Shown: positions 2,176-35,911 of the stretch, one piece after another | Position numbering within the stretch: position 1 is the stretch's first letter | Layout of the letters: each line of letters begins with the position of its first letter | Assembly (NCBI RefSeq): GCF_004010195.1 | Contig: NC_057718.1 | Span: 48,920,290-48,984,289 of the forward strand | Length of the DNA: 64,000 nt | Reading direction: 5' to 3' | Origin: Chiloscyllium plagiosum | Lineage: Eukaryota | Made by a program: the position numbers and the translations under genes | The notes under the pieces: generated by a model | What the model was told of the DNA's origin: nothing | What the model saw: the letters and a program-made list of their open reading frames with translations, nothing else | Databases searched by the model: none

Positions 2176-3529
2176 GTAAAAGACAACTACAATTTAACAG
2201 AATCAAACAAGTCTCTGAATGATGAATTCATACGCAGCTACTAACACTTAATAACTCTAGCAACAGCAAGGAAATAATATTTTTTTATAATTTGTTTATG
2301 CAAAAGAAGGCTTTGATAATACATTGTGATGATATTTTTACTTCATTATGTTCATGAATGCTTCTGTCAATGCTTATTTTCAACAATAAGTTAGAATGTA
2401 AGAAAATAGGAGCTGGAGTAATCCATTTTGGTCCTTTCATCTGTTCTGCCACTTAATTATAGGATGGCTAGTTATAGGATGATCTTGTATGTTAACTATG
2501 TTTTTCTACACTATCTCCAATTCCTTTGATTCTCTTAGTGTCCAAAAATCCAAAAAATGTCAATGTTTTCACCTTATCTATGGTGTTTTAATTCGTTTCA
2601 CTGCTGATTGTTATTACTAGCAAAGGATCTGAATGTTATTATATTCCACAGTAGAAATTCATACAGAAAGATGAAAGGCTATGATTTTATCAGTGCTTGC
2701 TAAGCAAACATTTCTTCAGTTATTGGGATATTTTAGAGTTAAGATGCAGATCACATCATTTGAGGTAATAGTTCTTGAAAAGACATGTGAACATATGAAT
2801 TATGACTTTGAGCAGGCTTCTCAATGCTTCAAGCTTGCTCCCTCATTCAATAAAATTATGGTTGATCTGATTCTTTCATACTCACACTGAAAATGATAAC
2901 CTTTGATAACAGTGTAATAAAAAAAAAGATTTTTAACAGATTCCTATTTGAACCCAAAAATGATCTGCTTATTGTAAAACAAAGCTTATTTCTAAAATGA
3001 AGTAGCAAAATTGATTACCAACGACTGGTTAATAGTCCAGAATTAGAAATATAATGCACTTTTAATCCCAAAACAAATATATACATATAGTACAAAATAC
3101 AAAACAACTCTGCAGAGATCACATTTCAGAAAAGGCAAAACTAAAATATATCTTTATTAGCTAAAAGTCTGACAAATAAAACATAATATTTGATGACTTC
3201 TCACATTCCACCATGTTTCTTGCCGATGAAATAAAATAGCTGACAGTCAAAGAATGATGGAAGAGTTTCCAAGACATCTTCAGCTCAAATGGAAATCAGA
3301 CTGGTTCCAAGTCTTTGGAAAGCAGTTCAACACTTTCAGGCTTTACAAAATAGCTAAGATACCAAGATGTGGTGATTCTCAAATGCTTCACCCAAGGGAC
3401 AATTTCAGGAGGGAGAGCTTTGCTGTTTATGCAAGTTTTAGTGGGTTTTCTCTCCAAAACCAGAAAAGATTGCCAGGCAACCACCAACTCATGGCTCATT
3501 ATCTCTTCTAAGCAGGTTTTCCATTATTT

Positions 3530-3702
3530 AAATGCAATAAGTTCTAACTCTTAACTCCTTAAAAGATTTACTTAGCTGTTTTCACAAAGTCATCAGGTGG
3601 CTTACAGCCAAATCAAATTGTTGACCCCATTCCCTGGTAAACTCTGTCTAATCCAGAAAGTGTACAAACAACTTGATATCTTCCAGTCTATAATCACCCA
3701 GT
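3530..3702 (-). pseudogene. Candidate terminal exon of unidentified minus-strand gene (RLGDYRLEDIKLFVHFLD*TEFTREWGQQFDLAVSHLMTL*KQLSKSFKELRVRTYCI*)
   Basis: Acceptor ctatatttatag. Phase 2 matches the 4373-4434 candidate. Protein-like frame with two internal stops. Confidence 0.4.
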
Positions 3703-4372
3703 CTATAAATATAGATATGTAATTTTAGAATAGCCATAATATTATTTATGCGTATACTTAAGTTAATTCATAGACAACCTTTTGTGTAGAAACGTTCAAT
3801 AAAAGATAGCCTTGCATTTATGTGGTGCCTCTTGTGCACTTTAGGGTGACCCCAAATGCTTGCAGCTGTTGGAATGTGGACCATGGAAAAAGTGTTCATG
3901 TTTTTGTTCTACTCTGAGATTTCCTAACAACATGGAATAAAACAGATGTAAGAATAAAAAGCATTACATAAAGATGGAAGCCCAATTTTTTTCTGCACTC
4001 CCTGACCTTGGTTCCCTTCCAAATGACATTTGAGTCTTTGGCTTTCTTTCAGACCTGCTGTATGGAGCTGTCATTTTGCCACATTGTAAGTAATCATAGA
4101 GATTCTTGCATGTGCAGTCTATGAGGATAACTGACTAAAATGAAATAAAATCATTTCCAGTGGATGCTAAGTAATCCCACTCCGAAAGACAGATTCATCT
4201 TTGGGGAATTTGCTGTAAATGTAGTAAAAGTGTTCAATTGTTAAAGAGGTTTTAGATACAGTCACTTTCACTTCAGTGAAAACTATTAATTGAACACAGA
4301 TTCAAACAGCCAAAATCACCATTTACTGTGTCTATTTTATTTAATATAATTGAATAGGATATTTGTTTTGAC

Positions 4373-4434
4373 CTTGTTGCTCATTGTCAGTTCAGCTCCG
4401 ACAGAAACTATACGAATTTGATGAGTTTTTCAAG
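4373..4434 (-). pseudogene. Candidate exon (LEKLIKFV*FLSELN*Q*ATR)
   Basis: Strong acceptor ctttcttatttttttattttattag and weak donor AAG|gtcaaa. In frame with 5622-5673. First stop at 4408-4410. Confidence 0.5.
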
Positions 4435-4913
4435 CTAATAAAATAAAAAAATAAGAAAGTTGTGGAATTATATAGCACTTTTCATGACCGCCAAATGTCT
4501 CAAAGCACTTTCTACTGCCAATGAACGACATTTTTGAAGTGTAGCCATTATTGTAATATATAAAATACAGCAGCCAATTTTACACATGGCAAGGTCTCAC
4601 AAACCAAAATGTGATAATTTATTATATTTTCTATATATTGGGCACCAGTTTAGCATCTCATCTAAGAGACAGCATTAGTTGGTATCAAGTGATACCAATT
4701 AATACACAATACAAACACATAGAATATACTTAGAAATTATTCCACCACAGACTCCTATTACAACTTTGGCTCAATAGCTAAAGGCAACATCTAGTGAGAA
4801 CTGAAAGGGTAGAGCAGGGCAGTTTTTGTTCCACGCTGTTACAGCACAGTAACAACAAGCCTTAACAAATCACCCTCACCGTCATTGGATTCTCAACATA
4901 GTTCTCAACATTA

Positions 4914-5229
4914 TTAGATTAGATTAGATTAGATTACATACAGTGTGGAAACAGGCCCTTCGGCCCAACAAGTCCACACCGCCCCGCCGAAGCGCAACCC
5001 ACCCATACCCCTACCCCTTACCTAACACAACGGGCAATTTAGCCTGGCCAATTCTCCTGACCTGCACATCTTTGGACTGTGGGAGGAAACCGGAGCACCC
5101 GGAGGAAACCCACGCAGACACGGGGAGAACGTGCAAACTCCACACAGTCAGTCGCCTGAGTCGGGAATTGAACCCGGGTCTCTGGCGCTGTGAGGCAGCA
5201 GTGCTAACCACTGGGCCACCGTGCCGCCC
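4914..5229 (-). mobile_element. HE1-type tRNA-derived V-SINE, full length
   Basis: Minus strand GGGCGGCACGGTGGCCCAGTGG (A box) and GGTTCAATTCC (B box), central TGTGTGGAGTTTGCAC domain, CR1-like tail and (AATCT)n end. Confidence 0.92.
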
Positions 5230-5621
5230 AGTGTTGCCTAATTGTTCCTTTATGATCTTGGACATCAAGTTTATAACAACCAAACATTACCAATTTATTA
5301 TTAATTATGTAACTTCAGCAGGTCACAAATAAACAACAAGGTAATCTAATTAATATCTACAATCTAAGCCCAATCATCTTTGACCATAAATGCCCACTCA
5401 CACACCAAAAGTGGTAAGGGATAAATTGAAAGAAGATTAAATAATTGTAATTTTCTGGTTTAATAAACAGTTTCAAATGATGGCTATTGGGCTTTTCTGA
5501 AATCCTTGGACAAAGATGTGTTCATAAACATGTAGAACTGGATATGTTGCTTGAAATTCAAAGTCACTGGTTAATGCAAACTGTTTCAGCAGAATGTGAG
5601 AAAAATATACTTATTACTTAC

Positions 5622-5673
5622 AGATTGGGATTCTTTTTCAAGAACATTCAACAATTCTATAACTGGAGAGACA
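5622..5673 (-). CDS. Candidate 52-bp internal exon (VSPVIELLNVLEKESQS)
   Basis: Acceptor ttctgtttgttttacacactttctag, canonical donor gtaagt, open frame phase 2 to 0. Confidence 0.55.
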
Positions 5674-5814
5674 CTAGAAAGTGTGTAAAACAAACAGAAT
5701 AGTCTTTCGAATCTTCCAAAAATGCACTGTCTCTTGTAAGAACCCTGTTATATCCACTTTTGTCTTTGTTTTCTCTTTTCAATTAACATCCTCTGTAGTT
5801 GGCTGGCTAGCACA

Positions 5815-6120
5815 GGTTCTCCTTTGATTGACTCACCTTTGGAATTCAGCTCTTTTGTCCATACTTGACCTAAGGCTGTAATGAGGTTGGGAGCTGAGTG
5901 GCCCTGGCAGAATCTAAACTGGGTGTAACTGAGCAGGTCATTGCTGAATTGGTGCTGCCTTGATAGCACTATTGACGACACTTTCCATTACTTTACTGAT
6001 GCTGGAGAATAGACTGGTGAGGTGGTAATTGGCCAGATTGAATTTGTCCTGCTTTTTGTGTGCAGGACATACCTGGGCAGGTTTCCACATTCTGGGTAGA
6101 TGCCAATGTTTTAGGGAAGT
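5815..6120 (-). mobile_element. LINE RT fragment (CR1/L2 superclade)
   Basis: QFRFCQGHSAPNLITAL..WTKELNSKGE resembles the RT QFGFR..HS segment. Confidence 0.7.
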
Positions 6121-6559
6121 GCATGTGTCTTGTCTAACTGGCAGCCATTATTCATTCACCCTCATTCACCCTGGAGGAGGCTGCTAATCTGATTCTGACT
6201 CAGGACTCAGGAGTATTATTAGACCTCATGGCTGTTTACCTCCACTGCAATGAGAAAAATAAAAGAAAAATACTGATGGTCCCTCCAACATATCTAGCTT
6301 AACTGATTTTATCTGTTAACATCACCTCCAATACCTCATAAATTAGGGACAGGAAAAATCTGCCACAGCTTCTGCTCTCAATCCACTCAGGACTCAGGAA
6401 TGGGCAGGGTTTTGGGCAGAAATACATTTTTGAGGCAGATTGCCAATTTATGAGCTTAAGACATAAATCAGTCCATACACTTTGGAGGAGGGCAGGCAGG
6501 CCCATACACCAATGTCAACAGCATCCTGTGTCTCCAGTACCAGCAGTCTTCAATCCAGG

Positions 6560-6800
6560 AAGGGATGCAAGAAGCAGGGGGATGGTATATGCAAGGTACA
6601 GCACGGCCCTATGGTTCAACAAGGTTCCCATCCAGGTAGTCAAGGAATGGCAAGAGTTGTTGTTCCCACTAAAAGGGTGAGACTGTTGCGCCTGACTCAG
6701 GAAAGCTGGAGAGTGGTTACAGCAGAGGTAAACAATCATGAGGGTCAATAGTTTGCGTCCCAGGTTGGAAGTAGATCAGTGCACGGCCAAGGCTGAGTCT
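6560..6800 (+). mobile_element. Degenerate Myb/SANT-like ORF, Harbinger-type DNA transposon relic
   Basis: Frameshifted peptides WFNKVPIQVVKEWQELLFP, QESWRVVTAEVN and DQCTAK follow the Myb/SANT pattern F..(V)..LF..W..VA..V..QC.KK. Confidence 0.5.
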
Positions 6801-8299
6801 GAATAAGGATCAGCTCAGTGTGGTTGTCTGGTGGACAACACACTTATAGAGTAACAAGCCATCATTTTGGACATGAGCGCTATACAGCACAACAGTTTTG
6901 GAGGGGGGGGGGGATGGTAGGGCGAAAGGGGTAGGCCTATAGAGTCCTCTACAAATGTCCCTCAGAGTCTAACAGACAAGGACGTGCCATTGCACTGGGT
7001 GGGAGTAGGTGATGTAGCCGGCCACTGCAGTCTCCTTCTGAACAAGAGGTCCTTAGCCCAGTGTTCCAAATGCTTTTGGTGTACAGTAAATGAATATGGC
7101 GGAGGATTTTGTGAAAGGACCCCCTTTGCTTGCTGGAGCCCTCCCAGCCCCACGTACCTAGCTGGCAGACTGTCAGGACTATTAAGCTCGGCAGTTTGCC
7201 TCCATCACCACTAGAGTACTGCGAAGTACATTGGAAAATGCACTTAGGCACAGCAGGGTAGCACAGGTTCAAACCTTTGGTGTTCATGTTTTTGGTGGAT
7301 TGGCTGTGTCTCTGGTTTAATATTCATGTGTGAGGATTTGCTCTACTGTTTTTATAGAGAGACGGTATTGAGGGAAATGGTGAATTTATGAACAGACATG
7401 CCAAAATCAGTCAAGAGGTATAGGCTTATACAATGAAAAGGGGTGCTTCCTTTTTTAAAAGTGTGTGTTCATATTCTAAACTCTATCCAAGTCATGCCTG
7501 AGTGACTGATAGTGTTTATCTCCTGAAGCAACAAGTATGCGTACTGCTTTATATGTAGAATGATATAATGGTTAGAAGGATGTTTTTAAACTCTCTGCAG
7601 CCGGTGTAGTTGAATCGATTTAACTCTAATGGAATTCAAGAATCAAAGATCTCAGGATTATAAAACCGACGTGTTTAACTTGATGGAACGCCTTTTGTAT
7701 TTCTATTAAGGAAAGAATAGAATGTGTGCTTCAGAATGATGTCCTTTAATCTTGTTGCAGGCTGGCAGCTAGTGAAACAATACTCTTGGTAAAGCAGGAC
7801 TGTGTTTTTTCGAAGCATGTGCTCAATGCATCAATATTCACCTCTTCTGTGGAGCTGAGGGTTGCTGATTTAATGCAAATAATTAAGGAATAGTGAACAA
7901 TAGTCATTTGCAAACAGTGGCTGGTACAAAGGATAACACCTTCTCTCCTGAGGCGAGGTGTCATGGTGGGCCTGAAATGCAGAAGAGACTTCCACTTGGA
8001 GATGGCTCATGTTTGTTTTTGCACAATAATACTCTTATTACATCTATGTGCATGAGTAAAATATCAAATTCTGCTGGTGGGCAGGAAGGACCTTCTGGAC
8101 TTTCTGTGTTCCTATTTCTGGGTGCCATATTTCTGAGCAGCAAATCAATGTTTGGAATATGGGACAATTGAAGTCATATACGTCCTTACCACATCCCCCA
8201 CCCAACTCTGGAGGTGTCAGAGTAGAGTGACCAGCCCCTTGGATTAGCACAAGCAAAAGGCCACCTTATTCCTTGGGAGTAATTACAAGTGGCTATCCC

Positions 8300-8970
8300 G
8301 CCTAATGAAGGCAGGAGAGGTGGACGTGGCTGAAACAGTCAATGAGCTACCGGGACACATGGCAGGATGCAATACTGCAAGGGGACAAATGATCTCTTGC
8401 TATCTGTCAAAGCACGTTCCACTATCTACTAAATCATTCATGACCCTGTAACTATATCCTACCATTGCCATTGTACAGAACGGTCACACACAACAGACAC
8501 TGTGACAGACATCTTTGTCACATGCCTCAGTCTACTTAGAAACTCTTACTTTATTGCACTATTCCATGTTGGACTTAGTGATATAACGTTGCACACCTCT
8601 GCCATGCTTCACTTCAAACAGAAAGGGGCACTGCAGAATACAACAGCTTATACAATATCAGCTCACTGACTCTTCCTCACAACCAGGTGAACTGACATGT
8701 CACATACCTTCTCACTAAAGGACTGAATGGATAAAGGTGTCATGTGAAAAGGTTGCTTGAGAATTGAAACCACACGGCAAATATCATACACACATCATAT
8801 GAAGCTTCATTGAAATTCAGACACTTCACCTCTTTTACCAGATGATGCAACTACCTCAACTATGCTGGCCAAGATACCGGGCGCCATCCCTGAACTGCAG
8901 CTGCTGACCATGTGTGAGGAGTCCGTTATTCGACTGGCATCAGAAAATGGAGAGTGTGCCTGAACACAAG
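8300..8970 (+). mobile_element. Possible second Harbinger Myb/SANT relic
   Basis: VAETVN near 8327. After an acceptor near 8841, GAIPELQLLTMCEESVIRLA resembles the GGG..L..LT..EE segment that follows such domains. Confidence 0.35.
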
Positions 8971-9474
8971 GAAAGATGGGATTGACCAGCCATTTGATAG
9001 GAAAACCTCTGAGCAGCTTCTCACATCTGCTCATCAAGCACCAGAGCTTAATGCAACCTTTAGTAAGGACAGTGCACCATGATGCCAACTTGGGTTAATG
9101 TTTACCTATGTCGCCTCTAGATCACAACTACTGAACTGTCAAGGACGATTAAGAGCCCCATCTCTCAGATCTCTGCCTCCCTCCCAGACCCAACCAGAAG
9201 AACTCTGAGGACAAGCAACTGGGAATTTCTCAGAAGGCTCACTCAACCCAAAACTTTAACTCTCCACAGATGAGTTTTTGCACCAATTTCTGTTTTTATT
9301 TCTGTTTTAACTAAGAATCTGTCATATATGCTTGAACTGGAATCACATAGATCGTCTTGGGAAAACATTTGTGAGACAAATAATTCAACAACTTCCATGA
9401 GTTTTGCTGGTGTTACCTTACAAATCACCACATATTTCTGTTCTTACTGCTTGAACTTATTGTCATAAATATTA

Positions 9475-9802
9475 CAGGTACACAATCCTTTATCCGAAAT
9501 TCTGAAATCCGAAAAGCTCCAAAATCTGAAGTTCCTTTTGTGAAGTTTTTTCTGTATTGCAAATTTGGTATGCAAACAGGTGACCTAACATCACACCCAC
9601 TTGACCCATATCACTCAGATGCGATGTGGCCCAGCACTGGCAGGCTGTGTCTCAATGCTCATACTAGTCACACCATGGGTCTGCTGTTCGGTAAGATTTT
9701 TTAATTTTACTGTGGAAATGTCATTTATTCTGAAATCCAAAAAATTCCAAAATTCGAAAAACAACTGGCCCCAAGGATTTTGGATGAAGGATTGTGTACC
9801 TG
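9475..9802. mobile_element. MITE, Tc1/mariner (pogo/Tigger-like)
   Basis: 21-bp TIRs caggtacacaatcctttatcc and ggatgaaggattgtgtacctg (20/21 match). Left flank TA, right flank TC. No coding capacity. Confidence 0.85.
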
Positions 9803-10634
9803 TCTAATTTTAGAGCTGGTAAGATAATTATTTATTAACATGCAGGACAATATGTTACCAGATGATGGCACTATAATACAGAAACAAGGCTTTCATACTG
9901 GACACTGCAGTGTTGAGGATCTGTTCATTGACAGCAACTGCAGAAAGGTTATGGTATGGAAGAAGTCTAAAGGAAGCTATCTAGCCAAACTCATCTTCTA
10001 ACTCTTTGTCTTGTAGGATACAGCTCTTCAAGTGCATATTCAAGCATATTTTTAACATACTTGTGTGATGAACGTTTCTTCCTCTACCACCATGTAAGGC
10101 AGTACATTTTTTCTTATCACTCATTTTATTCGTTCTGCCAATTACTTTAAAGTTATGCCCCGTCAGTTTTTGAATTGTGTAAGAGAAATAGACGCTTCTT
10201 ATTCACTCTATCATGGTTCCTCTAATTTTATGCACCCCATAAAATCCTACTCTATTAACCCCCTCTATTTGAAATAAAACAGCTGCAGCCTGCATAAGCC
10301 TTCCTTATAGCTCAAATATTTAAACTGTGGCAACATATACATCGACTTGCATCCTACCTAGTACTTATACAGCTCTTGCAAAATTGAGGACTAAATTACA
10401 AATAGCTTGTTACTTTAGGGCCCATAATTTTAAGATTTTTCTGTTTTTTGCTTATGAGAAAATAATGCAAACAATTACACCTTCTAAAATGAAATGAGCA
10501 ATTTTAACCAAGTGTACTGGATAGAAATTGGGCAATGAGGAATTTAGTTATTTTGATGAGGTCTCAAACAGATGATTGTCTGGCTCTAAGCTCTATTTCT
10601 TGTCCAGCAAGTTATGTTAAAGTTGACCATAAGT

Positions 10635-12110
10635 AACACGGCAGACAAGCAGGAGGCTGGAAGAACACAGCAAGCCAGGCAGCATCAGGAGGTGGAGAAG
10701 TTAATGTTTTGGATATAACCCTTCTTCAGGACTCGGGGGTGGAGGCGATGGGAGTAGATAAAGGGGAGGTAGAGGAGGGTTTGGGTGGAGGGGTGGTGAG
10801 GCAAGGAGAACACAGGCGGAGGGTACAACCTGGTTGGATTATGGGAGGAATTAATCCGATTGGTAGCTGGAAGGAAACTTTTCTCATTCCTGAGAAGGGC
10901 TTATGCCCGAAACGTCGATTCTCCTGTTCCCTGGATGCTGCCTGACCTGCTGCGCTTTTCCAGCAACACATTTCCAGCTCTGATCTCCAGCATCTGCAGA
11001 CCTCACTTTCTCCTCCAGCTGGAAGGAAGGGTCAGTCAGAAGAATGGAAGGGAGGGGGAGGAGGAGGGGCTGGGAAGGGAGTTGGGGGATGAGAAGGAAG
11101 GTTATTTGAAATTGAAGAACTCAATGTTGAGTCCTCTGGGCTTCCCAGGCAGAAGATGAGGTATTGCTCCTCCAATTTGCGGTCTGATTCACTGTGACAA
11201 TGGAGGAGACTGAGGATGATCATGTCAGAAAGGGAGTGGGAAGAGGAATTAAAATGGGCGTTTACTGGGAGATCCGGTCAGCCCTTGTGGGCCCGGCTGA
11301 GATGCGCAGTGAAATATGCCCTTAGTTTACATTTGGTCTCATTAATGTCGAGAAGACCACATTGGGAGCATCAGATATAGTAATCTAGGTTGGAAGAGAG
11401 GCAGGTGAACCTCTGTCTCATCTGGAAGGACTGTTGGAACTCTGGATGGAGGTGAAGGATGTGGTGTATCGGCAGGTTTTGCATCTTTTCTGATTGCAGG
11501 GGAAGATACCTGGGGTTTTGGGGGTAAGGGGGTGGTTTGTGGAGAGAGTGGTGGGAACTAAGGATTGGCCAAAGGGAACAGTCCTTGTGTAAGGAAGAGA
11601 GAGGTGGGGAGGGGAAGTTGTTCTTGGTGGTGGGGTCTAGTTGGAGTTGGCAGAAGTGGTTGAGGATGATACATTGGACATGGAGACTGGTGAGGTGGAA
11701 GGTGAGGACAAGAAGGAACCCTGTCTTTCTTACATTTAGAGGGAGGGTTTAGAGCAGTGAATGGATGTGGTGCAATGGAGGGCTGTCTGGTTGACAGAGA
11801 GGGGTAAAGCATGTTGTTCAAAATAGGTGGACATCTGGGACGCTTGGGAGTGGAATATCTCCTTATCCGAGCAAATGCAACAGAGATGGAGGAATTGGAA
11901 AAATAGGATGGAGCTCTTGCAGGACACTGGGTGGGAGGAGGTGTAGTCCAGGTAGTTATGGGATTCTCTGGATTTATAGTAAATGTCCATCCATCAAGCC
12001 TGAAACATTGACTTCTCCAACTCCTGATGCTGTCTGGCTTGCTGTGTCCTTCCAGCATCCTGCTTGTCCACTTTGGATTCCAGCATCTGCAGTCTTTTTG
12101 TCTTTAACAT
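10635..12110 (-). mobile_element. Penelope-like element, 5'-truncated, with inverted terminal copy at 11995-12105
   Basis: DIYYK..SHNYLDYTSSHP..CKSSI..QFL (RT thumb) and RKLEEQYLIFCLG (GIY-YIG end). 10640-10712 is the reverse complement of about 12000-12070. Confidence 0.85.
10877..11016 (+). mobile_element. 140-bp Penelope terminal fragment nested in the element above
   Basis: 12-bp TSD agctggaaggaa at 10865-10876 and 11017-11028. Contains gaagggcttatgcccgaaacgtcg. Confidence 0.85.
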
Positions 12111-12189
12111 ATATATCACCGTTCTGATGACTCCAAGAAACATGCAATGGAACCATTTTTACTTTGATGTGTAGTTGATGCATAAAGGC

Positions 12190-12515
12190 CTTGACCATAA
12201 AAGTCAAGGCTAACATTCTGATGCCGTACTGTGGGCGTGCTGCACTGTTGAAGGCACTGCCTTTTGGGAGTGACTTTAAATCACGAAACTGTCTGCCCTC
12301 TCAGCTAGAAATATATTGTCCTGTAGTACAATGTTGAAGGACTGGGGAGTTACTCCTGGAAAGGTGTCTAATATTTATCCTTCAATCAACATCAGAATTT
12401 GCTCTGCACACATTCGTTGTTGTGCTTCTTACATTACACCAGAATGTCTATGACTGTAAAATGCTTTGGATAGTCTGTGGACAAGGATATGCTACATTAA
12501 TGCAAATTCTTCTTC
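12190..12515 (+). mobile_element. Degenerate DeuSINE-like element (SacSINE1/AmnSINE1 type)
   Basis: gtactgtgggcgtgctgcactgttgaagg..gtctgccctctcag..aatatttatccttcaatcaacatc resembles the Deu domain. It ends in an L2-like tail, aatgcaaattcttctt. Confidence 0.6.
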
Positions 12516-12582
12516 CCTTTAATGAAAGGTTTGCAAGACCCAGGTAATAAAACTCTCACCACTCCATTGCTCTATGTCCAGG

Positions 12583-13045
12583 TTTGATGATGCTGCTCCT
12601 TTAACAAGGTTATGCTGTCCTTGGTATTTTTTTCACAGAGGTCATAAAAGCAGCGATTCCAAAAGGTCTAGGTTTGAAGGGTTGTAGGGTCAATTTGATT
12701 ATAGCTAACAGATATTGCCTCAGGCAAAAGACTTCCAAATTTAAAAAAAAACTTGTACAATGAAAGGAGAGTGGCCAGTTCTCCCAGCTCAGCTTTGCTT
12801 TGGTTTGGCTTTAGCAGCCTGGCTGTTCACGAGAAGCAGTAGGTGAGTTGTGAAGCTGCTGGACCCAAAGAAGCAGGTCCATGCTGATCCTCCCCCTCTC
12901 TGACATTGCTCCTGTGAGAACCTGTGTTGGATTTTTCCTTTTTGTTGCAAAGGGGTGTTTATGGGGATTGTTGCAAGTATTTAGAACAGTGTCATTAAAT
13001 TGGGATAATCAGTTGGGTTTACAGATGAGTTAAGTTATTCATACC
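12583..13045 (+). mobile_element. Truncated LTR-like fragment
   Basis: Start (tgatgatgctgctcctttaacaagg) and ggtgtttatggggatt segment resemble the LTR at 18319-18938 but are clearly diverged. Confidence 0.5.
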
Positions 13046-13257
13046 ATTAAACTGAAAACATTTAAAAAGCACATTAAAGGATGGGGGTAAATTAATTCAA
13101 TCCAGTCAAGTGCCCACTTTACATTCTTTCCCCAATAATGATCTTCAATATCAAATGCATTAGCTCTAATAAATATCTTTCATTAGTGCAACATCATCAT
13201 TTAGAATTCATTACTATCCTTCAAACAAATTCTGATTTTGCATTTGTGAAAAGTTAC

Positions 13258-13309
13258 TTGGAAAGGTTGTTCTTGCACTTTTGATGATGAAAATTAGTTG
13301 AAACTTGCC
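13258..13309 (-). CDS. Weak candidate exon (RQVSTNFHHQKCKNNLS)
   Basis: atttag acceptor and gtaact donor. Phase 1 to 2 bridges the 19699-19781 and 5622-5673 candidates. Confidence 0.25.
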
Positions 13310-14115
13310 CTAAATTGCATATGGATGAGGACGTGTGAATGAGCACAAAATCCCTAATGCCATGCCCAGAAATATCACTCAACGAGGAACAAGTAGGTGG
13401 CATAATATCATGTCTGTTTCAGAGGGTATTTGTATTGTACTCCTGCCAACAATATAACTGAAGCACCAATTTCATTGTAGAAATTACCAAAATAGAAGTC
13501 AAAATAACCCTCCCTTAACGACAGAGTAATTATTTGTGTAGACATAAGCAGCATTGTCTTCAGTTCTACAACTTGAGAAAAATATCGAAGCCAACCTTTT
13601 TCGCACAGTGAGTGCTAATAATCTGGAATGAACAGCATGAAAGGCTGGTGATGGCAGAATCAATTATTATTTCCAAAGGGGAATTGGGTATGCACCTATT
13701 GGGAGAAATAAAAATCCTCAGGTGGTAAGGGGAAAGGAGATCTCATTGATGATAGAAAGATAGTTTACCACAGGGTAAAAAGGAAACTCATGAGGGGGAA
13801 AGAGAAGTAAAAACAGCTCAGGTGTTATCACTACAATGAAGTAGGCCATATGAAGTCGCAGTGTTGGGTGGTTTAAAAAAAGCACTGAGAAGATGGATGT
13901 GGGAAAACAGGATAAGCCAGTGAGTTTCATTGAAGTAGTAAAGGAAAGCACAGAGGAAGCGAAAACGCTGCAACGCAATGTACAACCTGGTCAGGAATTG
14001 GTTGAGAAGAAAGTGCCAGATCTCTGTAAAGAATTCACTTGCGAGACCAAGGTTTACTCATATATGCCAGGGGAAGGAGATAAAGAAGTTATAAGTTTCA
14101 GAGACACAAGAGCAT

Positions 14116-14169
14116 CCAGGACCACACCCTCGACTCAGTTCTCCAGCATCTGCAGTCCTCACTTTTTCC
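14116..14169 (+). mobile_element. 54-bp Penelope terminal fragment inserted at the Gypsy protease motif
   Basis: Near-TSD gagacacaagagcat (14101-14115) and gagatacaggagcat (14170-14184). Insert ctccagcatctgcagtcctcacttt matches about 10985-11010. Confidence 0.75.
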
Positions 14170-17100
14170 GAGATACAGGAGCATGTCAATTTTTGAACAT
14201 GAGGGATGAGGAGATATGTAGTTCACAAAGACTACTGCGAGAAAGGGTTGAATTTGTTATGAGAAGAGTGGTGTTCCATTATATAAAGTAGTGGATTGGA
14301 AGAGAAATTCTTGTTTTCAGGAATCCAATTTATCTTTGGTAATAATATAGCTGGATCACAGGTGGGTGTGATGCCTCCTGAGGTTGAAAAGCCAGTGGAA
14401 AATCAGGCGGCTCAGGTATTACAGGAAGTATATCCTGGATTTTTCCTGACTCTCTGGTAATAAGGCCAAAAAGTCAGAGGTTGAAACAGGTGGAGAAATC
14501 AAAGAGTAAGGATTAGGAAGTTGAAGTTCATTTGTCAGAGACTATGTTTGATCAAATGGTTGAGAAAAATACAAGAACAGTTGGAGGACAAAGTGGATAT
14601 TTTTAGTTCAGAGGAGTTAACTGAATTACAACAGAAAGATGAAAAACTAAAGCAGTTGAATAAAAAAGCGTACACAGAAGTAGAATCTGAGTGTATCCCA
14701 GAATGTTACTATTTTAAAATATGACGTCTTGATGAGGAAATGGAGACGATCCCATATTAAAATGGATGAGAAATGGGCAGAAGTTCATCAAGTTGAATTA
14801 CCAGTGGGTTATAGAAAGGAGGTGTTACTGGTAGCACATGCTTATCAGTCGGAGGTCATTTGGGTGTTTGTTCAAGTCAAAATACAAAAACATTTTTCGT
14901 GGCCTAGAGTGCATGATGATGATTGCTGGATATGTCATACACGTCAGGTATTTGGAAAATCACAAGCTGCGATAAAACTGACACCCTTAATAACCATTAA
15001 TGCATTTGAAGCACCTATTACAAGGGTCATAATTGTTTGGGTGGGATCCCTTCCTAAAACAAGAAAATGGGAATCAGTATTAGTTGAACGTAATGGATGC
15101 CTCAGATTTCCACGGGCTATTACATTACACAGTATCACAGCTAAAAGATTGTAGAAGAGTTGTTCAAATTTTTCACTAGATATGGACTACCCACAGAGAT
15201 ACAATCAGATAAAGGGTCAAATTTTACATCAAAATTATTCAAGAAGTTACGGATAGTTTAGGAATAAAACAATTCAAATCCACTGCATTCCATCCAGAAT
15301 CGCAGGGAGCATTAGAACAGTGACATCAAACTTTAAAGACTATGTTAAGGGTTTATATTCAAGACTATCCAGAGAATTGGAATAAAGAAATTCCATTTGT
15401 ACTATTTGCAATTATGGACGCACCAAATGAATCTATGAACTCCAGTCCATTTTAATTAGTGTTTGGGCATGAGGTGAGAGGGCCACTGAAAATAATTAAG
15501 GAAAAATTGGTGAGTCAGAATTCAGAGACTACACATTTGAACTTTGAACAAATTTTAAGGAAAGATGAATAGAGTGGGTGAGTTGGCTAGACAGCATTTA
15601 AAGGTAGCACAGCATATGATCAAACAAGAAACCAACAAGACAATGAAAATTCACAATTTTGATCGTGGAAATAAAGTATCAGTGTTCCTTCCATGGGTAG
15701 GTGAACCTTTTAAAACAAGATTTAGTGAGCCTTACCAAATCAAAAGTAAATTGACTGAGGTGAATTATTTGCTAAAAAAGCCAGATAGAAAGAGGCTTCA
15801 TTCGCATGACACTTCAGAGTGTGTCATGCGAATATGCTCCGAAGGGAATTTGATAAGGAAGGAAAGTAAAAGAAGAATGTATTACTTGTTACAATACAGA
15901 GTGAAGAACCAAGTTTAAATGATTCTGAACTGGACATTCCTCGAATTAAACTGGACAATGAAGAAGTTCTTAAAAATTAGGATAAATTACTGAGTTAACT
16001 TCTAGAGAAAATTGAAATGACTTGAAAGAATTATTACAATCACATGGGGAGATATGTGGCAATTAGCTGGGAAGTGCTAATCTAATTAAGCATGATTTAG
16101 ATATAGGAAATACTGTTGCAATTAAGCCACGTTCTTGTAGACTTAACCCTCTAAAGTTGGTACAGGTTCAAGAAGAGATTGGATGCATGCTCAAGGACAA
16201 CATAATTGAAGCAACTGGAGCTCACCCAAAATAATGGTGACAAAGCCAAATGGTAACCCATGATTATCTGTGGACTATCGTAAAGTCAATGCAGTTACAA
16301 AATCTAATTTGTATCCAATTCTACTTTTGGAAGTCTGTATTGAGAAAGTGGGTCAGGCAACTTATATTTCTAAGTTGGACGTGGTCAAAGGATACTGGAA
16401 AGTACCTTTATCTGAATGAGTGAAGACAATTTTGGCTTTCCTGACATTGAATGGACTGTGTCAATTTAAAGGAATGCCATTTGGAGTGAAAAATGTGCCA
16501 GCCACATTTCAAAGTCTAACCAATAAAGTTATTTCTGGATTATCCAATTATGTGGTGTACATTGATGACCTGATGATTTTTAGTTATGCATGAAAGGAGC
16601 ATTTATTGGAATTGTTTGATTGTCTTCGGGAGCAGGCCTGGTGATAAACCTGGCTACGAGTGAGTTTGCAAAAGCCCAAGTTATATTCCTGGGCCATATC
16701 ATTTTGCATGGACAGATGGTCCCATGGGATGTGAAAACAAAGGCTATTGGGAAGTTTCCCATACAGATGAAATGAGAGGTGTTATGAATCCTGGGATTGA
16801 GTGTTTTTTACCAGAAGAAGCTTATACCAAATTGATGCAGTGTGATTACTCTACTGACTGACTTTTTGAACAAGTGCAGAAAATTTCGATGGAAGGAAGA
16901 CTGTGAGAAGACATTTAACAGCCTAAAAGCTGTGTTAACCTCTACCCTAGTGTTAGCCACATCTAATTACACAAAACCATTCAAGGTGGCTATCGATGCG
17001 AATGATGTGGGTATCAGTGCTGCACTCTTGTAAGAAGATGAGAAAAAGATAGAAAGATCAATTGGATATTTTTCTAGAGAATTGAATAATCATCAACAGA

Positions 17101-17503
17101 AATATTCTATGATTGAGAAGGAGATCTTGAGCTTAATATTGTTATTACAACACTGTAGACAACTGTCTATACTGATCATAACCTCTTAAAGTTTTAGGAG
17201 AAATTTAAGGACAAAAATTCCAGACTGTTTATTATTGCAGCCATTCAATTTTAAAATTATACACATACTCAAGATGGGAGAACATGACTGCCAGTGCACT
17301 GTCATGACTTTGTACACCACACAATTGGATAATCCAGAAATAACTTTATTGATTAGCCTTTGAAATGTGGCTGACACATTTTTTGCAACAAATGTCATGA
17401 CTTTAAATTGATATAGTCAATTCAATGTCGTGAATTCCAAAATTGCCTTTTCTCTTTCAGATAAAGGTACCGAATAAGTCCAAATTAGAAATATAAGTTG
17501 CTT

Positions 17504-17937
17504 GAACATAGAACATAGAACAATACAGCACAGAACAGGCCCTTCGGCCCACGATGTTGTGCCGAACATTTATCCTAGCTTAAGCACCCATCCATGTACC
17601 TATCCAACTGCCGCTTAAAGGTCACCAATGATTCTGACTCTGCCACTCCCACAGGCAGTGCATTCCATGCCCAATGAGAAAAGGCCTAGCACTCTCAACC
17701 TATCCTCGTACGACCTATTCTCCATTCCAGGCAACATCCTGGTAAATCTTCTCAGCACCCTCTCCAAAGCTTCCACATCTTTCCTTAAGTGAGGCAACCA
17801 GAACTGCACACAGTACTCCAAATGTGGCCTTACCAAGGTCCTGTACAGCTGCAACATCACTTCACGACTCTTGAATTCAATTCCTCTGTTAATGAACGCT
17901 AATACACCATAGGCCTTCTTACAAGCTCTATCCACCT
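17504..17937 (-). mobile_element. CR1 LINE 3' fragment nested in the Gypsy region
   Basis: ORF 17615..17935 has LVRPHLEYCVQFW. The tail reads (aacatag)n on the plus strand. Confidence 0.92.
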
Positions 17938-18318
17938 CACCTTCTCAATACAGTCTTCCAAAAGTGGAATAGGATACAAATCAGATTTTGTAACTGCATT
18001 GACTTTACGATAATCCACACATAATCATTGGTTACCAACTGGTTTTGACCCCATTGTTATGGGTAAGTTCCAGTTGCTACAATTATGTTGTCCTTGAGCA
18101 TGCATTCAATTTTTTCTTGATGAAGAAAGATGAAAGTGTTTGGTGACAGAAAAGAAATAGCTGAAATAGACTGTAGTAGTTAATGTTTGCTTGCTTAAAG
18201 TCAATGTAATGTATATATTTTGTAGTGTACTAATAGAGTAAGGCTAAGGATTTCTAAATATGAAGCCATCTTTGTACTTTGATGGTTTTTTGTTTTAATG
18301 CGGGAGGTTGGGGGAAGG

Positions 18319-18938
18319 TGTGACAATACTGTGGCTTTAAGAGGTGTGTTTTGTCCAAGTTTCTTTGGAGGAAGATTAGGAGACAAGCACTGAGCAGTCT
18401 ATGAGAAGATAAAATTGTGAAGCCTTGGATATTGTTTTGAAACTTGGAACAACAGAAACAGGCTGAGTTGGTGTGGTCATGCTGCCCCCCACCAGACCCG
18501 GGGATTTTTAGGTTTTTCGTTTCTCCAGCAGCAGTTGCTGTTAGGGTCTTGATGAAGTGAACGCTATTTTCCCCTTTCTCAATTACAGCCGAAAGCTGAG
18601 GGGGTTCGCTTCCTGGGGGCTGCTAGATTGTGTGTGAGACAAACCTGTTTTCTGGATTTGCGTTTTGCCAAGGGTGTATTTATGGGACATTACTATAGTG
18701 GAACAATTAATTAATAATATTGTTGTTATTATTGTTAAGTTTTTCAATAGAGTTGTTATTCCAAGTTCTTCTTTCCTTTGTTGTATTTTAACTATCGTAT
18801 TTGAAGAAATTGCATTTTGCTTAATGTGGAATAGGCGGACCAATCTAATTAGATCTGGAACACTTTAAAATAAAACAAATGCTAGGGTCTAGGCTACCTT
18901 CTTAATATATTTTGAGCGGGGCTGGTCTAGTCCATAAC
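18319..18938 (+). mobile_element. 3' LTR of the Gypsy element
   Basis: Begins TGTGACA directly after the PPT and ends ccataac. Both ends match the solo LTR at 42640-43286. Confidence 0.8.
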
Positions 18939-19149
18939 TAAGGCCCAATATCTTATCAAACCAACCCAATTAATTACCCCCACCATCCATTGCATCCCTC
19001 ATGTCCGATTTCTGCCCAATTGTGCCATGCAATTTCCCACAACAACTCACTACTTAGTGGCTATCTGCCAAAAGATCGCCATCCCTTACACTTGTGCCAT
19101 CGTTACAATGCGGTGGTGCACCCAGATAAGCATTATCATTCTAAATCTG

Positions 19150-19337
19150 CCCTACTCATGGAAAGCGACTGACCAAGATGGAAACCCCGGTCATACATTC
19201 AGATCCTGTGTGGATCAGTTGATGAGCATCTTTAACCTCTCCTTTACTACGTTCTGAAATCACCACCTCCTTCAAAAAGACCACCATCGTCACAGTGCCA
19301 AACAAATATCGTGCAGCGTGCCTCAATGACTATCGCA
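19150..19337 (+). mobile_element. Rex1/Babar-type LINE fragment
   Basis: CVDQL..IFNLS and FKKTTIVTVP..CLNDYR motifs. Confidence 0.7.
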
Positions 19338-19698
19338 ACAAAGCAGTCTCAGAGTTTTGAAACAAATTTGAGAGCTTTGAAGCCTCAGTCAAGGTAGAAG
19401 GTGTCCCACCTGCACAGATGACGTTGAATGTGAGATTGACATGTTTATGGAAAAAAAACACTTCAATCCTCAGAAAAGGATTATTAGGAAGTTCAAAATC
19501 TCCAAATAACTTATAAAAAACTAGCTGGAGAGGTGAAGATGGGGTGGAGGTGGAAGAGAGATATCATTAATACCAAAGTAGATCATGTTAGTATTTATTG
19601 TGCAGAAATTGTTGATCTGCCTGGATGGAAGGTGGGTACAAGAGAAACTAATCAACAAGCCGTGTCAGCACTGAGCACCTTTTTAACCAAAACATAAC

Positions 19699-19781
19699 GG
19701 ACCAACATGTTGAGCTCCTGATGGACATGGAACATTAGAATAAGCTTGAACAGATCAAACCTCAACACAAATTGTCACTTT
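19699..19781 (-). pseudogene. Weak candidate exon (K*QFVLRFDLFKLILMFHVHQELNMLV)
   Basis: Acceptor gtttttgtttagtag, weak donor gttatg, one internal TGA. Confidence 0.25.
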
Positions 19782-19883
19782 CTACTAAACAAAAACTATT
19801 TCTCAGTAGTTTTAGCAATCAAGCAACACAATGTCACCTTGCTAATCTGAAATCAAGAAGCTTGGAAAAACTTACAAAACCTT

Positions 19884-20128
19884 GGGTGGCACAGTGGCTC
19901 AGTGGTTAGCACTGGTGCCTCACAGCACCAGGATCCCTGGTTCAGTTCTAGCTACAGGTGACTGTCTGTATGGAGTTTGCACATTCTCCCTGTGTCTGTG
20001 TGGGTTTCCTCCCAAAGTCCAAAGATATGCAGGTCAGGTAGTTTGCCCATAGTGTTAGGTGCATTCGTTGGGAGGGTGGGTTGGTTTGGGCTGAAGGGCC
20101 TGTTTCCACACTGGAGGGAATCTAATCT
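19884..20128 (+). mobile_element. HE1-type SINE
   Basis: gggtggcacagtggctcagtggttagcact head, ggagtttgcacattctccc core, aatctaatct tail. Confidence 0.88.
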
Positions 20129-20214
20129 TATACTCAGACAACCAGTGGTCTGACTTAATTAACACAATTTATAAAATAGTGAGAGATATTGATTGAATTA
20201 ATGGTAGTATTTTT

Positions 20215-20528
20215 TTCTCCTAGGTTGGGAGATTTCAAGATTAGGGGGCACATTTTTAAGGTGAAAGGAGAGAGATTTAAAAAAGACATAAGAGGCAAAT
20301 GTTTTACATAGAGGGTGGTTTGCATGTAGAGTGAACTTCCTGAGGAAGTGGTCAGTCCACATACAATTACAACATTTAAAAGACATTTGGATAGATACAT
20401 GAATAGGGAAGGCTTGGAGGGAGACGGGCCAGGAGCAGGCAGGTAGGACTAGTTTAGTTTGGGATTATGTTTGGCATGGACTGGTTGGATCGAAGGGTCT
20501 GTTTCCGTGCTGTATGACTCTATGACTC
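20215..20528 (+). mobile_element. CR1 LINE 3' end
   Basis: tttaaggtgaaaggagagagattt..catttggatagatacatg..tatgactctatgactc tail. Confidence 0.88.
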
Positions 20529-20534
20529 CATAAC

Positions 20535-20662
20535 AGAGAGACATATCAATGGAAGAAAAATCTTCTCTGTTCTAGAAATGTTCAGATTGTGGTGAACAAT
20601 AAGCTGAAGAAAGCGTTCTGCTACAGTTAATGAATGTTGACCTAGTCTTTCAAAATGAAAAC
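20535..20662 (-). CDS. Candidate exon (GFHFERLGQHSLTVAERFLQLIVHHNLNISRTEKIFLPLICLS)
   Basis: Strong acceptor ctctgttctctctttttag and an open phase-1 frame. The donor is uncertain (gttatg, with a CR1 tail 6 bp away). Confidence 0.5.
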
Positions 20663-20865
20663 CTAAAAAGAGAGAACAGAGAGTTTGTTTACGTTTTATT
20701 GACATCGATTCCCTGTGAAATGAACCTGCACATCTACAACAAATAATACACATCTATCAATGAAGACAGACAGCACAATACCAAGTGAAGCCACACAGCA
20801 AGTTGTGATAATTGCATAAGGAATAAATCTATTCATGCTGTATGTTTAACAAACTGTTGTCTAAC

Positions 20866-20928
20866 CATGTAGAGACAATGTATCTGTGTGCACCCTTCTA
20901 CATGTTACCAGAAAAGCATTCCCCTTCA
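20866..20928 (-). CDS. Candidate 63-bp exon (VKGNAFLVTCRRVHTDTLSLH)
   Basis: Strong acceptor ttcttctatttttcttctag, donor G|gttaga, symmetric phase 1-1, open. Confidence 0.5.
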
Positions 20929-21624
20929 CTAGAAGAAAAATAGAAGAATTTGTGCATTTGCATTGATTCCAGACCAGACAGAGAATATATCTTTAAGATA
21001 ATGGCAGACACCATGACATGCGATATCCTTGTATAAAGGTGCCTGCTCACCTTCAGTCAGTCAGTCAGTCATTCTGTCAGTGTGGTGGAGTGAGTGCGGT
21101 GTGTTCAGTCAGTCAGTTATGTTGTCTATAGTAACCATCTTTAAGGACAGGAGCAGGCTATGTATAAATGTTATGATTCTAGGAAATGGTACTACTGAAT
21201 AAGTCGGATCCCAGAAGAAATTTTGGCTTGATAGATCATATGCATATATACAATTTTCTTTTAATTTTAGTTAATGAGGTGGTCTTTAACTGAAACATAG
21301 TCATGTGAGGTTATACGCTTTCTTTATTAACAGAACAGAAGGATATTATTCAAAAGATGAGAAAAGCAAGCTATCGAGAATTTAAATGTAATTTTAAAAA
21401 ATGCTAAAACATGCAGAAAAACAAAATTTTAGACTACTTTCCAACATTCACACTTTACAGTAATTCAAAAAACCAGTAAGAGAATCAAGGGTTATGAGGA
21501 AAAAACATCAAAGTAAAATCAAGAATCATTGAATCATTGAATCAGGGAGCAGAGTCAACGATCTGATTTATCTACTGCTGCTCTTACATTTTATAGTTTA
21601 AAACAAATTTTTACATTCTACTTG

Positions 21625-23043
21625 AAGATACTATTCAAGGAAGGTGGTAAGGAAAAACCAGGGAACTATAGACTGGTGAGCCTGACATCAGTGGTGGGCA
21701 AGTTGTTGGAGCTGAGGGACTGGAATTTCATATATTTGGAAAAGCAAGGACTGATTAAGGACAGTCAACATGGCTTTGTGCATGGGAAATTATGTCTTAT
21801 GAATTTGACTGAAATTCTTTGAAGAAGGAACAAAGGTTGATGAGGACAGAGCTGTGAATGTGATCTATATAGACTTTAGTAAGGTGTTCAATAAGGTTTG
21901 TCATGGTAGACTGATTAGCAAGGTTAGATAACACAGAATACAGGGAGAACTAGCTATTTGCATACAGAACTGGCTCGAAGGGAGAAAACAGAGGGTGGTG
22001 ATGGAGGGTTGCTTTTCAGACTGGAGGTCTGTGATCAATGGTGTGCCACAGGGATTAGTGCTGGATCCACTGCTTTTCATCATTTATATAAATGATTTAG
22101 ATGCGAACATAAGAAGTATGGTTAGTAAGTTTGCAGATGACACCAAAATTAGAGATGTAGTGGACAACGAAGAAGGTTACCTCAGAGTACAATAGAACCT
22201 TGAACACATGGGCCAATGGGCTGAGGTGTGGCAGATGTATTTCAATTTATATAAATGTGAGGAGCTGCATTTTGTAAAGGCAAATCAGGGCAGGACTTAT
22301 ACACTTGGTGGTAAGGTCCTGGAAAGGCTCTTTGCTGAACAAAGAGACCTTGGAGTGCAGGTTCATAGTTCCTTGAAAGTGGAGTCGTGGGTAGATAACT
22401 AGGGAAGATGGTGTTTAATATGTTTGTCTTTATTGGTGAGTGCATTGAGTATAGGAGTTGGGAGGTAATATTGTGGTTGTACAGGACATTGGTTAGGCCA
22501 CTATTGGAATACTGCGTGCAATTCTGGTCTCCCTGCTATAAGAAGGATGTTGTGAAACTTGAAAAGGTTCAGAGAAGATTGACAAGGATGTTGCCAGGGT
22601 TGGAGAATTTGAGCTATTGGGAGAGGCTGAATAGGCTGGGGCTGTTTTCTCTGGAGATTTGGAGGCTGAGGGGTGACCTTATTGAGAGTTATAAAATCAT
22701 GAGCGGCATGGATAGAGTAAATAGACAAGGTCTTTTCCCTGGAGTGAGGGAGTCCAAAACTGGGGGATATAGGTTTAAGAGGAGAAGGGAAAGATTTAAA
22801 AGGGACTGAAGGGGCAACTTTTTCATGCAGAGCATGATGTGTGAATGGAATGATCTTCCAGAGGATGTGGTGGACACTGGTACAATTACAACATTTAAAG
22901 GCATTTGGATGGGTATATGAATAGGAAGCATTTAGATGGATAGTGCTGGCAAATGGGACTAGATTTACTTAGGATATCTGGTCAGCATGGACAATTGGAG
23001 CGAAAGGTCTGCTTCTGTGCTGTGATTCTCTATAATTCTATGA
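21625..23043 (+). mobile_element. CR1 LINE, about 1.4 kb of ORF2 RT and 3' end, decayed
   Basis: PGNYRLVSLTSVVGK, SQHGF, GVPQG..INDLD, KFADDTK and EYCVQFWSP motifs, followed by an attctat tail. Confidence 0.93.
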
Positions 23044-23963
23044 TTTCACTTCATTGATTCTCCACAGTTTCTGCCCTGTGGACTGTAGAGTCTTCTTACT
23101 TGAGTACTGAGAGATCAAGAGGTTAGCTTTTCTCAGCTTCTATTAACCTGCAGGTTTCTCGCCAAATACTATGAGTTTGGGAATTGTACAAAACCAACTT
23201 TTCCACTGAGATAACTTATTTCCTTACTTGGTCTGAAAAATCTCCTTTATTGGAGAGAGACTATATTCGTTTCTTAAATCTCTTCTAAGCAGCCCTGAAA
23301 ACACTTAATTGTCTAAACTGAAACTAATCCTGAATTGTTTTACACTAAAAACATATTAATAGATAGAATGCTTACTCTACCTGTAATAAATCACCACATC
23401 AAAGACATGTTTCCATTATTTCTTTAGGATTACCCTGCTACCTAATGCATGCAGGTTTAGGACACTGATCCAGAACATCTAGTCTTTAAAAACAACTCTT
23501 CACAGAAGTAACTATGCCAGTATTTTAGAGTCCACACTTTAAAAATGATGTTAACAGATTTGTAAACCACATTTATTTCATCATAACATGTCTGAAGTAT
23601 CAAAACAGTGTAAATAGTGTTGTTAAGAACTTCAACAAACCTGTCTCAACAAAAACACAGTTTTGGTAGTGTATAAGCGAACATACAAGTCAAGACTCAG
23701 GCCATATCAGACTGGTGGTGGTATATGACCCATAAAACTACACCAGGAAGGTGCCTCAGCATCTTGTACCAAGAAGTCTCAAGGATTAATTATTTTCTCA
23801 GCAGTACCAATGACTAAATCCTGCTTTGCGATGAAAATTTACTCAAAGTCTGTCTACATAAACGGCCCTTCTTATATCCGCCATAACATACTGCGTGCAC
23901 AGGCTCAGAAACGGTCAACCCCATGAAGAATCTTTTATAAGCAGATTTCAAAATCCACAATAC

Positions 23964-24068
23964 CTGTGCCAGTGCTTGGGAAGAGCTGAGCACATGACAA
24001 TGTGTCATCAAGAAGTTTTCTTTCTTAAGTGCTTTTTCTTTCAGCAGTGTCTAAATACTGTGAAGGAT
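23964..24068 (-). pseudogene. Candidate 105-bp exon with in-frame TAA (YPSQYLDTAERKST*ERKLLDDTLSCAQLFPSTGT)
   Basis: Strong acceptor ctcttctctttcgttcccttcctctag, donor CAG|gtattg, phase 1-1. TAA at 24025-24027. Confidence 0.5.
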
Positions 24069-24294
24069 CTAGAGGAAGGGAACGAAAGAGAAGAGTTGAC
24101 ATGACACTGAGAGGCTGCACATTAGTAGGTGACTGTCTTCAGACTGCAACCTGAAGTTGTAGGTTTGCTTAATAGTTGCTGAAGTTGATAAAGTAATGCC
24201 ACACACTCACCCGAGATAAACGTCCCTGCTGCTCAGACTTTGCCTGATCACTAATTTCCGGGGTTTCTTTTTGCTTTGCTTGGATAAGACTTAC

Positions 24295-24351
24295 AATAAT
24301 GGATAATCATCCTCTGTTTTAGCTCTCCTTTTCTTGATATGTTATCTTGTC
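24295..24351 (-). CDS. Candidate 57-bp exon (QDNISRKGELKQRMIIHY)
   Basis: Acceptor tccttctcttactacag and donor gtaagt. Only the phase 1-1 frame is open. Confidence 0.55.
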
Positions 24352-25701: not shown

Positions 25702-26344
25702 GTACAAAGTTAAAAATCACACAACACCAGGTTATAGTCCAACAGGTTTAATTGGAAGCATTAGCTTTCGGAGTACTGCTCCTTCATCAGGTGATTGTGG
25801 AGTACACAACTGTAAGACACAGAATTTATAGCAAAAGTTTACAGTGTCATGTAACTGAAATTATACATTGAAAAATATCTTGATTGTTTGTTAAGCCTGT
25901 CATCTGCTAAGAATGACCACGTTAGTTTCACTTCTTTCAAATGTAAATCACAAACTCTTTTTTAAAAGTTACATTCTCAGGTTAACTTTAACAATTGGTG
26001 TCAGCCCAGATAATGTGTTGAAGGTGTTAGCTCTCTGTCTGCTGCTGTCTGTGCCATAATGTTTAGCCTGATTCTAATCTAAAAAATGAATTAACAGAAT
26101 TTTAATGGATTCATGCAGTTTTTGAGCAAAGTGCAATGTGACTCTGCAAGTACAAATTCACCCTACAAACGTATATGTGTATGTGTGCGTGTGTGTGCGC
26201 ATGTTTGTTTGTGTGTGTGTGGGTTCGGAGCTCGTGAATGTCTGTGATAGAGAGTGTATATGTGTGAGTGGAAAAGGGTCTAAGTCTGTGAGAGGGTGCA
26301 TGTGTGAGTGTGAGAGTGTGTGTGTCTGTAGGTGTATGTGTGAA

Positions 26345-26375
<31 letters not shown>

Positions 26376-28962: not shown

Positions 28963-29128
28963 CAACTCATCAACTCAACATCATCAACTCAAAATCAACT
29001 CAACTCATCAACCGCCAGTTCTGATCTGTAATCAGAAAGGAACTGTAATGACCCCCTCAGGACATCCTGGTGTATTGGCTTGACATGCTGCAACTGTCAG
29101 GGTACTCTTTGTTGTCCAGTACTTCCCA

Positions 29129-35400: not shown

Positions 35401-35911
35401 CAGCCAAATTTTCACCATGACAGTTTTTTATTTCCATTGACATGGAAAACATTACCAAGACTTTTGACTTTAAAGCAGGTAAAGCAACACCAAGATGAGA
35501 AATAAAAAAGACAAACTGTGGATGCTGGAACTCTGCAACAAAAACAGAAATTGCAGAGAAATCGAGTACCATTTTGACTCCAATTTTGCCTCATCAAAAC
35601 TGGAAAAATAGGAGAGCCAGCAAGACTAGGAAGGCCAGCAAGACTAGGAAGGCCAGCAAGACTAGGATGGTCAGCAAGACTAGGAAGGCCAGCAAGACTA
35701 GGAAGGCCAGCAAGACTAGGATGGTCAGCAAGACTAGGATGGTCAGCAAGACTAGGATGGTCAGCAAGACTAGGAAGGCCAGCAAGACTAGGATGGTCAG
35801 CAAGACTAGGATGGTCAGCAAGACTAGGAAGTGCATATCCACAAAAAGGTTTGAACTACTATTTCATCAACTTCACTGGAAAGAATTTCAGGCATGGTGA
35901 AAAAATGTCTG
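35401..35911. mobile_element. Possible MITE enclosing the minisatellite
   Basis: Inverted repeat cagccaaattttcaccatg and catggtgaaaaaatgtctg (16/19 match). Confidence 0.4.
35616..35831. repeat. 18-bp minisatellite, 12 copies
   Basis: Unit gYcagcaagactaggaWg in perfect tandem, with two variant junctions (aaggcc and atggtc). Confidence 0.97.

Follow-up and report, generated by a model that had tools for sequence, protein, structure and literature searches.

Nine exon-like pieces on the minus strand of a Chiloscyllium plagiosum contig: a probable old unprocessed pseudogene

Gene model and the interrupted fourth exon

The window considered here is a stretch of 64,000 nucleotides (nt) of Chiloscyllium plagiosum DNA (RefSeq assembly GCF_004010195.1, contig NC_057718.1, forward-strand positions 48,920,290 to 48,984,289), whose minus strand carries nine exon-like pieces that are probably the remains of an old unprocessed (intron-keeping) pseudogene. 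The original prediction, made from the letters of the window, had proposed nine segments, all of which do start after an AG, with eight ending before a GT (the ninth is terminal) and with peptides and stops as it gave them. Exon-intron structure is retained in the form of nine AG/GT-bounded pieces in one frame, strongly for exons 1-4 and 7 and weakly for exons 5-6, and exon phases run 1-1-1-1-2-1-2-0-2 once two inserts in exon 4 are skipped (Table 1). The model totals 393 codons, nine stops and one or two frameshifts, and the 24.4-64 kb part of the window offered no convincing exon further upstream.

The two inserts consist of a 5'-truncated 3' tail, which we take to be that of a long interspersed nuclear element (LINE), and a short interspersed nuclear element (SINE), presumably of HE1 type. 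HE1 SINEs are reported from elasmobranchs (PMC2911107). The junction from 20535 to 19781 had been described as inconsistent in phase; the clash vanishes when the LINE tail and SINE are both skipped as far as a GTAAGT donor at 19875. This donor lies five bases past the SINE, in phase 2 as needed by the exon at 19781, and leaves a 94-nt intron between them. GTAAGT occurs ten times on the minus strand, and the chance of meeting one within 10 nt is about 0.002 (about 0.017 for GTAAG or GTGAG). The GT that follows 20535 scores in the bottom fifth of donors and sits at the edge of the LINE insertion. Only one direct repeat of at least 3 nt is found at the SINE junction; the LINE-tail junction is ambiguous, and three of five candidate short direct repeats keep the frame.

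At the 3' end, the last segment does not stop at 3530 as had been proposed, and after a frameshift its open tail continues to a TAG beside a poly(A)-signal-like AATAAA, for which the chance of occurrence within 10 nt is about 0.007. A further minus-strand segment, 1764-1726, lies 1.4 kb past the proposed last exon, and combines the second-best acceptor of the strand with a good donor 39 nt downstream and an AATAAA at 1683; it may serve as an alternative 3' exon, belong to a different gene, or arise by chance. Another exon-like segment of 115 nt at 19524-19410 (minus strand, phase 0-1), with good acceptor and donor, would likewise bridge the 20535 donor to the 13309 exon, and its peptide resembles translated T-rich DNA.

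Table 1. Features of the proposed gene model, in window coordinates
Feature	Position	Strand	Details
Exon 1 (first visible; may not be the true first exon)	24295..24351	-	57 nt, phase 1-1; in-frame ATG at 24310; acceptor in top 0.1%; GTAAGT donor
Exon 2	23964..24068	-	105 nt, phase 1-1; one in-frame TAA; acceptor in top 0.15%; best donor within 200 nt
Exon 3	20866..20928	-	63 nt, phase 1-1; open; acceptor in top 0.25%; best donor within 200 nt
Exon 4, 5' part	20533..20662	-	130 nt; open; best acceptor of the strand
LINE 3' tail (presumed), 5'-truncated, in exon 4	20164..20532	+	369 nt; 68-80% identical to four other window copies
Exon 4, middle island	20127..20163	-	37 nt between inserts; open in exon-4 frame
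SINE copy in exon 4	19881..20126	+	246 nt; 15-19% mismatch to two other copies; flanking 3-nt direct repeat
Exon 4, end	19876..19880	-	last 5 nt, then GTAAGT donor at 19875 (phase 2)
Exon 5 (candidate)	19699..19781	-	83 nt, phase 2-1; one TGA; weak splice sites
Exon 6 (candidate)	13258..13309	-	52 nt, phase 1-2; weakest member; peptide not protein-like
Exon 7	5622..5673	-	52 nt, phase 2-0; open; GTAAGT donor
Exon 8	4373..4434	-	62 nt, phase 0-2; three stops in chain frame
Terminal exon, coding part	3161..3702	-	2 stops in the first 50 or so codons; frameshift near 3555-3550; 2 further stops in the 129 codons that follow, ending at TAG 3163-3161
AATAAA poly(A)-signal-like hexamer	3153..3158	-	two bases past the stop; T/GT-rich stretch after

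Splice sites and coding signal

Splice sites were scored with a simple matrix, and 4052 AGs on the minus strand were ranked. Strong acceptors are found at 24351, 24068, 20928 and 20662 (top 0.02-0.25%) and at 4434 (top 1.6%), but those at 19781, 13309, 5673 and 3702 are ordinary (top 5-36%). The non-repeat DNA of the window comes to 34 kb; the four strongest acceptors are among its top six and fall within 2.3 kb of unique sequence (P 0.014). Further strong acceptors at 56676, 45473, 61807 and 15053, which belong to repeat-derived DNA, were left aside. Three of the exons with strong acceptors have a usable donor, and in these the best-scoring donors give lengths of 141, 105 and 63 nt, all multiples of three, as is true for none of eight others among the top 12 acceptors. 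The 141-nt version of exon 1 uses a stronger alternative donor and holds more stops.

Coding was tested by seven statistics on 384 codons, with 1500 best-frame nulls matched in length for comparison. The frame of the chain contains seven stops over 264 codons, and the other two frames contain 21 and 19. Three-base periodicity (codon-position bias; P 0.008) and an excess of G at codon position 1 over position 2 (P 0.007) both exceed the nulls, glycine and proline are scarce (P 0.015), and the helical moment, a measure of helical periodicity, is raised (P 0.02). Glutamate makes up 7.8% of residues compared with 3.7% in the nulls, none of which reached that level, and 10.1% compared with 3.6% in the tail of the terminal exon (P 0.005). 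The signal comes mainly from exons 7-9. TGA accounts for five of the nine stops, compared with 40% in the background, a difference that is not significant. The tail and the recovered 19875 donor carry more weight than the remainder, because neither had been chosen in the original prediction.

Searches for the parent family

Attempts to name the parent used single-exon protein queries of 42-129 residues. Pfam returned one chance match to the seven exon peptides (E 0.18) and none to two tail peptides; comparisons with PDB sequences gave no matches, no matches, and one at E 0.42. Word-index searches, which covered proteins of up to 2000 residues, yielded 1, 147 and 1 candidates among the longer proteins, none of which scored. 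When the tail was compared with 1.84 billion representatives by phmmer, the lone match was a repetitive sequence of 1291 residues, which was rejected (pairwise E 0.43), and a metagenome scan with the tail confirmed none of 122 stretches. The best ESM Atlas score for the 5' part of exon 4 (exon 4a) was 0.86, to short unnamed clusters that offer no evidence of identity, and a single-sequence AlphaFold model of the tail, made with no alignment, had a predicted local distance difference test score (pLDDT) of 37. Spectrin repeat, RGS, STING and DED, all leads picked out by eye, gave no Pfam match when single exons were searched at E up to 1, with no dedicated profile built for them. Searches of the literature did not lead to the locus, although without a gene name absence from print cannot be shown. 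Four of 16 listed sequencing runs, all from one study, contain 0.51-0.76 of the query words; no RNA run is among those listed, which gives no evidence either way on expression.

Two further likenesses were followed with profiles. Firstly, exons 3-4 and 8-9 seemed by eye to resemble cyclin-box helices (A/B-type cyclins, PF00134 and PF02984), a resemblance that found no support. A hidden Markov model (HMM) was built from 13 cyclins (14 of 118 loci were full length and one near-duplicate was dropped; three were checked by Pfam). It found no domain, and local alignment scores equalled the shuffle mean with degraded controls well above it, so that an A/B-type cyclin was rejected; the profile covered the A/B type, with divergent cyclin-fold families lying outside it. 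Secondly, the relic seemed by eye to resemble TBC (Rab-GAP, PF00566) domain proteins in motif, which again was not supported. A weak alignment links the tail to two giant-virus TBC proteins, in their C-terminal part (pairwise P 0.03-0.05; HMM score equalled by 73 of 2000 shuffles, 0.3 bits). TBC proteins carry IxxDxxR and YxQG motifs, whereas the relic is without YxQG and its N-terminal half is unmatched. A TBC/Rab-GAP identity was rejected on scores of about 0 bits, an hhalign probability of 0.1% and the lack of a Pfam match, in a comparison of low power that used two to three seed sequences.

As an observation in its own right, two giant-virus (GVMAG) contigs (L133:2-988, minus strand, and L137:434-1420, plus strand) encode TBC Rab-GAP proteins that carry the catalytic motifs and are 31% identical to one another. 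A TBC-like motif stretch also occurs on a contig filed as an Acidobacteriota metagenome-assembled genome (L162:716-1624, minus strand), which is probably eukaryotic contamination.

Decay, competing readings and meaning

On the pseudogene reading, the host gene would once have had at least nine exons spread over 21 kb and its protein would have had some 390 residues or more, rich in leucine, glutamate and lysine, poor in glycine and proline, and by implication largely alpha-helical; from its composition one might guess at a scaffold of the cytoplasm, built as a helical bundle or solenoid, and not at an enzyme. Once function was lost, neutral decay would have brought nine nonsense changes and at least one frameshift, and the LINE tail and SINE would have entered exon 4, displacing its donor by about 615 nt. 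That all pieces belonged to a single message, and the order in which these events took place, is what we infer. Presumably no full-length protein is made now, and any message would meet a stop at codon 33. A processed pseudogene was rejected, introns of 94 nt to 7.6 kb separating the pieces.

The inserts give some measure of age. The SINE differs by 15% and 19% from two copies that are themselves 10% apart, and the LINE tail by 25-28% from four copies, from which we estimate a divergence of roughly 12-14% per lineage. In simulations of neutral decay, 0.15-0.2 substitutions per site produced 6-7 stops (5-95% range 2-11), with which the nine found are compatible. The mutation rate reported for the epaulette shark, 7e-10 per base per generation (PMC10587355), says that the lesion is old and is not usable for dating it.

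Several results weigh against the pseudogene reading. No homologue appeared in any search (Pfam, PDB, word-index, 1.84 billion representatives), with single-exon queries, no positive control and other shark genomes outside the scope. When frame choice is left free, stop depletion is not significant (9 against 11.1 +- 2.8, P 0.30), nor is general protein-likeness (P 0.25); the glutamate excess was noticed post hoc, block 1 (exons 1-4a) alone passes none of the seven coding tests, and exon GC is not clearly higher than that of the flanks. The coding P values are optimistic, because most of the pieces had been selected by eye and as many as seven statistics were used. Clustering of the strong acceptors weakens to P 0.056 for the top 8, 0.14 for the top 10 and 0.097 over the whole window, and exons 5 and 6 have weak splice sites. 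Of the direct repeats at the LINE junction, the longest (5 nt) is out of frame. In a test of the best three-exon in-frame chain, the window did no better than chance (in two sets of 150 block shuffles, 56 and 48 reached its best), and the best chain is not the proposed one, better chains lying elsewhere in the window; because shuffles match this test, splice sites and phase alone do not prove a gene. Finally, from the gap rates of the inserts one would expect 4-14 frameshifts over 1180 nt, compared with the one or two visible (P 0.25, 0.015 and 0.0001 for three rates), so that either shifts are hidden in exons 5, 6 and 8, or the chain is partly wrong, or the decay is less old than the inserts would indicate.

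The shortfall in frameshifts is among the points in favour of the alternative that survives best, though we consider it unlikely: only part of the chain would be real, with exons 1-4 and/or 7-9 as gene remnants and exons 5-6 as chance fillers, perhaps as two relics or with true exons missing whose AG or GT has mutated. The weak sites and poor peptides of exons 5-6 fit such an account, as do the phase-compatible candidate at 19524-19410 and the uneven density of stops (one in the 114 codons of block 1, five in the 86 codons of exons 7-9a); yet the recovered exon-4 donor suits the phase of exon 5 across its 94-nt intron, and a second start or end is not evident.

Less probable still is a spliced non-coding RNA, or a substrate of nonsense-mediated decay, still transcribed from the strong exons 1-4 and possibly derived from a dead gene, with splice signals selected at the RNA level. 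The acceptors of exons 1-4 have survived unusually well in sequence decayed by 12-14% and the poly(A)-like signal is intact, but the chain shows coding-type signals, upstream non-repeat DNA holds no CpG-island-like promoter, and, as regards a structured RNA, none of 4227 Rfam families matched the window at gathering score. We attach a similarly small chance to there being no gene at all, in which case pyrimidine tracts and AG/GT pairs such as intergenic or intronic DNA contains would have been joined after the fact. Blank homology searches, non-significant stop depletion and the third or so of shuffles that equal or beat the best three-exon chain of the window all favour such an account, whereas the GTAAGT donor after the SINE, the glutamate-rich open tail and the AATAAA beside the stop were all found after the original choice of segments and each fits the model.

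The original prediction of one hidden gene or unprocessed pseudogene is kept in so far as a single multi-exon unit that fits a pseudogene is concerned, but an intact hidden gene is very unlikely because nine stops, a frameshift and two inserts within an exon interrupt the coding frame as read in the assembly. That the gene is intact and expressed and its stops are assembly errors is scarcely credible: exons 1-4a are nearly open and the window, as draft sequence, contains N gaps, but nine stops over four exons and two old retroposon copies in exon 4 are not plausible as base-calling errors.

Repeats also occur in other parts of the window. Positions of about 13400-18950 hold a decayed long terminal repeat (LTR) element, which we take to be gypsy-like, with an inverted duplicated reverse-transcriptase piece (16168-16561 compared with 17311-18120) and a nested tail, presumably of a LINE. 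Retroelement copy pairs, inverted or tandem, occupy 25702-30616 and 45344-48249, the second cluster spanning N gaps; we assume both to be Penelope/GIY-YIG-like. A minisatellite at 35616-35831 comprises 12 copies of an 18-nt unit with 94% match and several open frames. On the minus strand at about 8190-8960, two well-scoring exon-like segments (8959-8830 and 8301-8190) lie in DNA resembling an old transposon relic, and together with a SINE piece form the best-scoring three-exon chain of the window.

Taken as a pseudogene, the locus shares with the unprocessed pseudogenes of vertebrates, unitary or duplicated, its kept introns, its nonsense and frameshift changes and a retroposon in a former exon. 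Dead genes are common, so the object is ordinary in kind and matters only if its parent is interesting. In that case it would either be a new instance of lineage-specific gene loss in a shark group or mark an undescribed gene family. It is a tentative and rather doubtful suggestion that the parent belonged to a protein family to which no protein in present collections recognisably belongs. Its gene would be an old one, coding for a helical protein in cartilaginous fishes (or jawed vertebrates), dead in this lineage yet still intact, though without annotation, in other sharks, rays or chimaeras; were that so, this relic would be the first pointer to that family.

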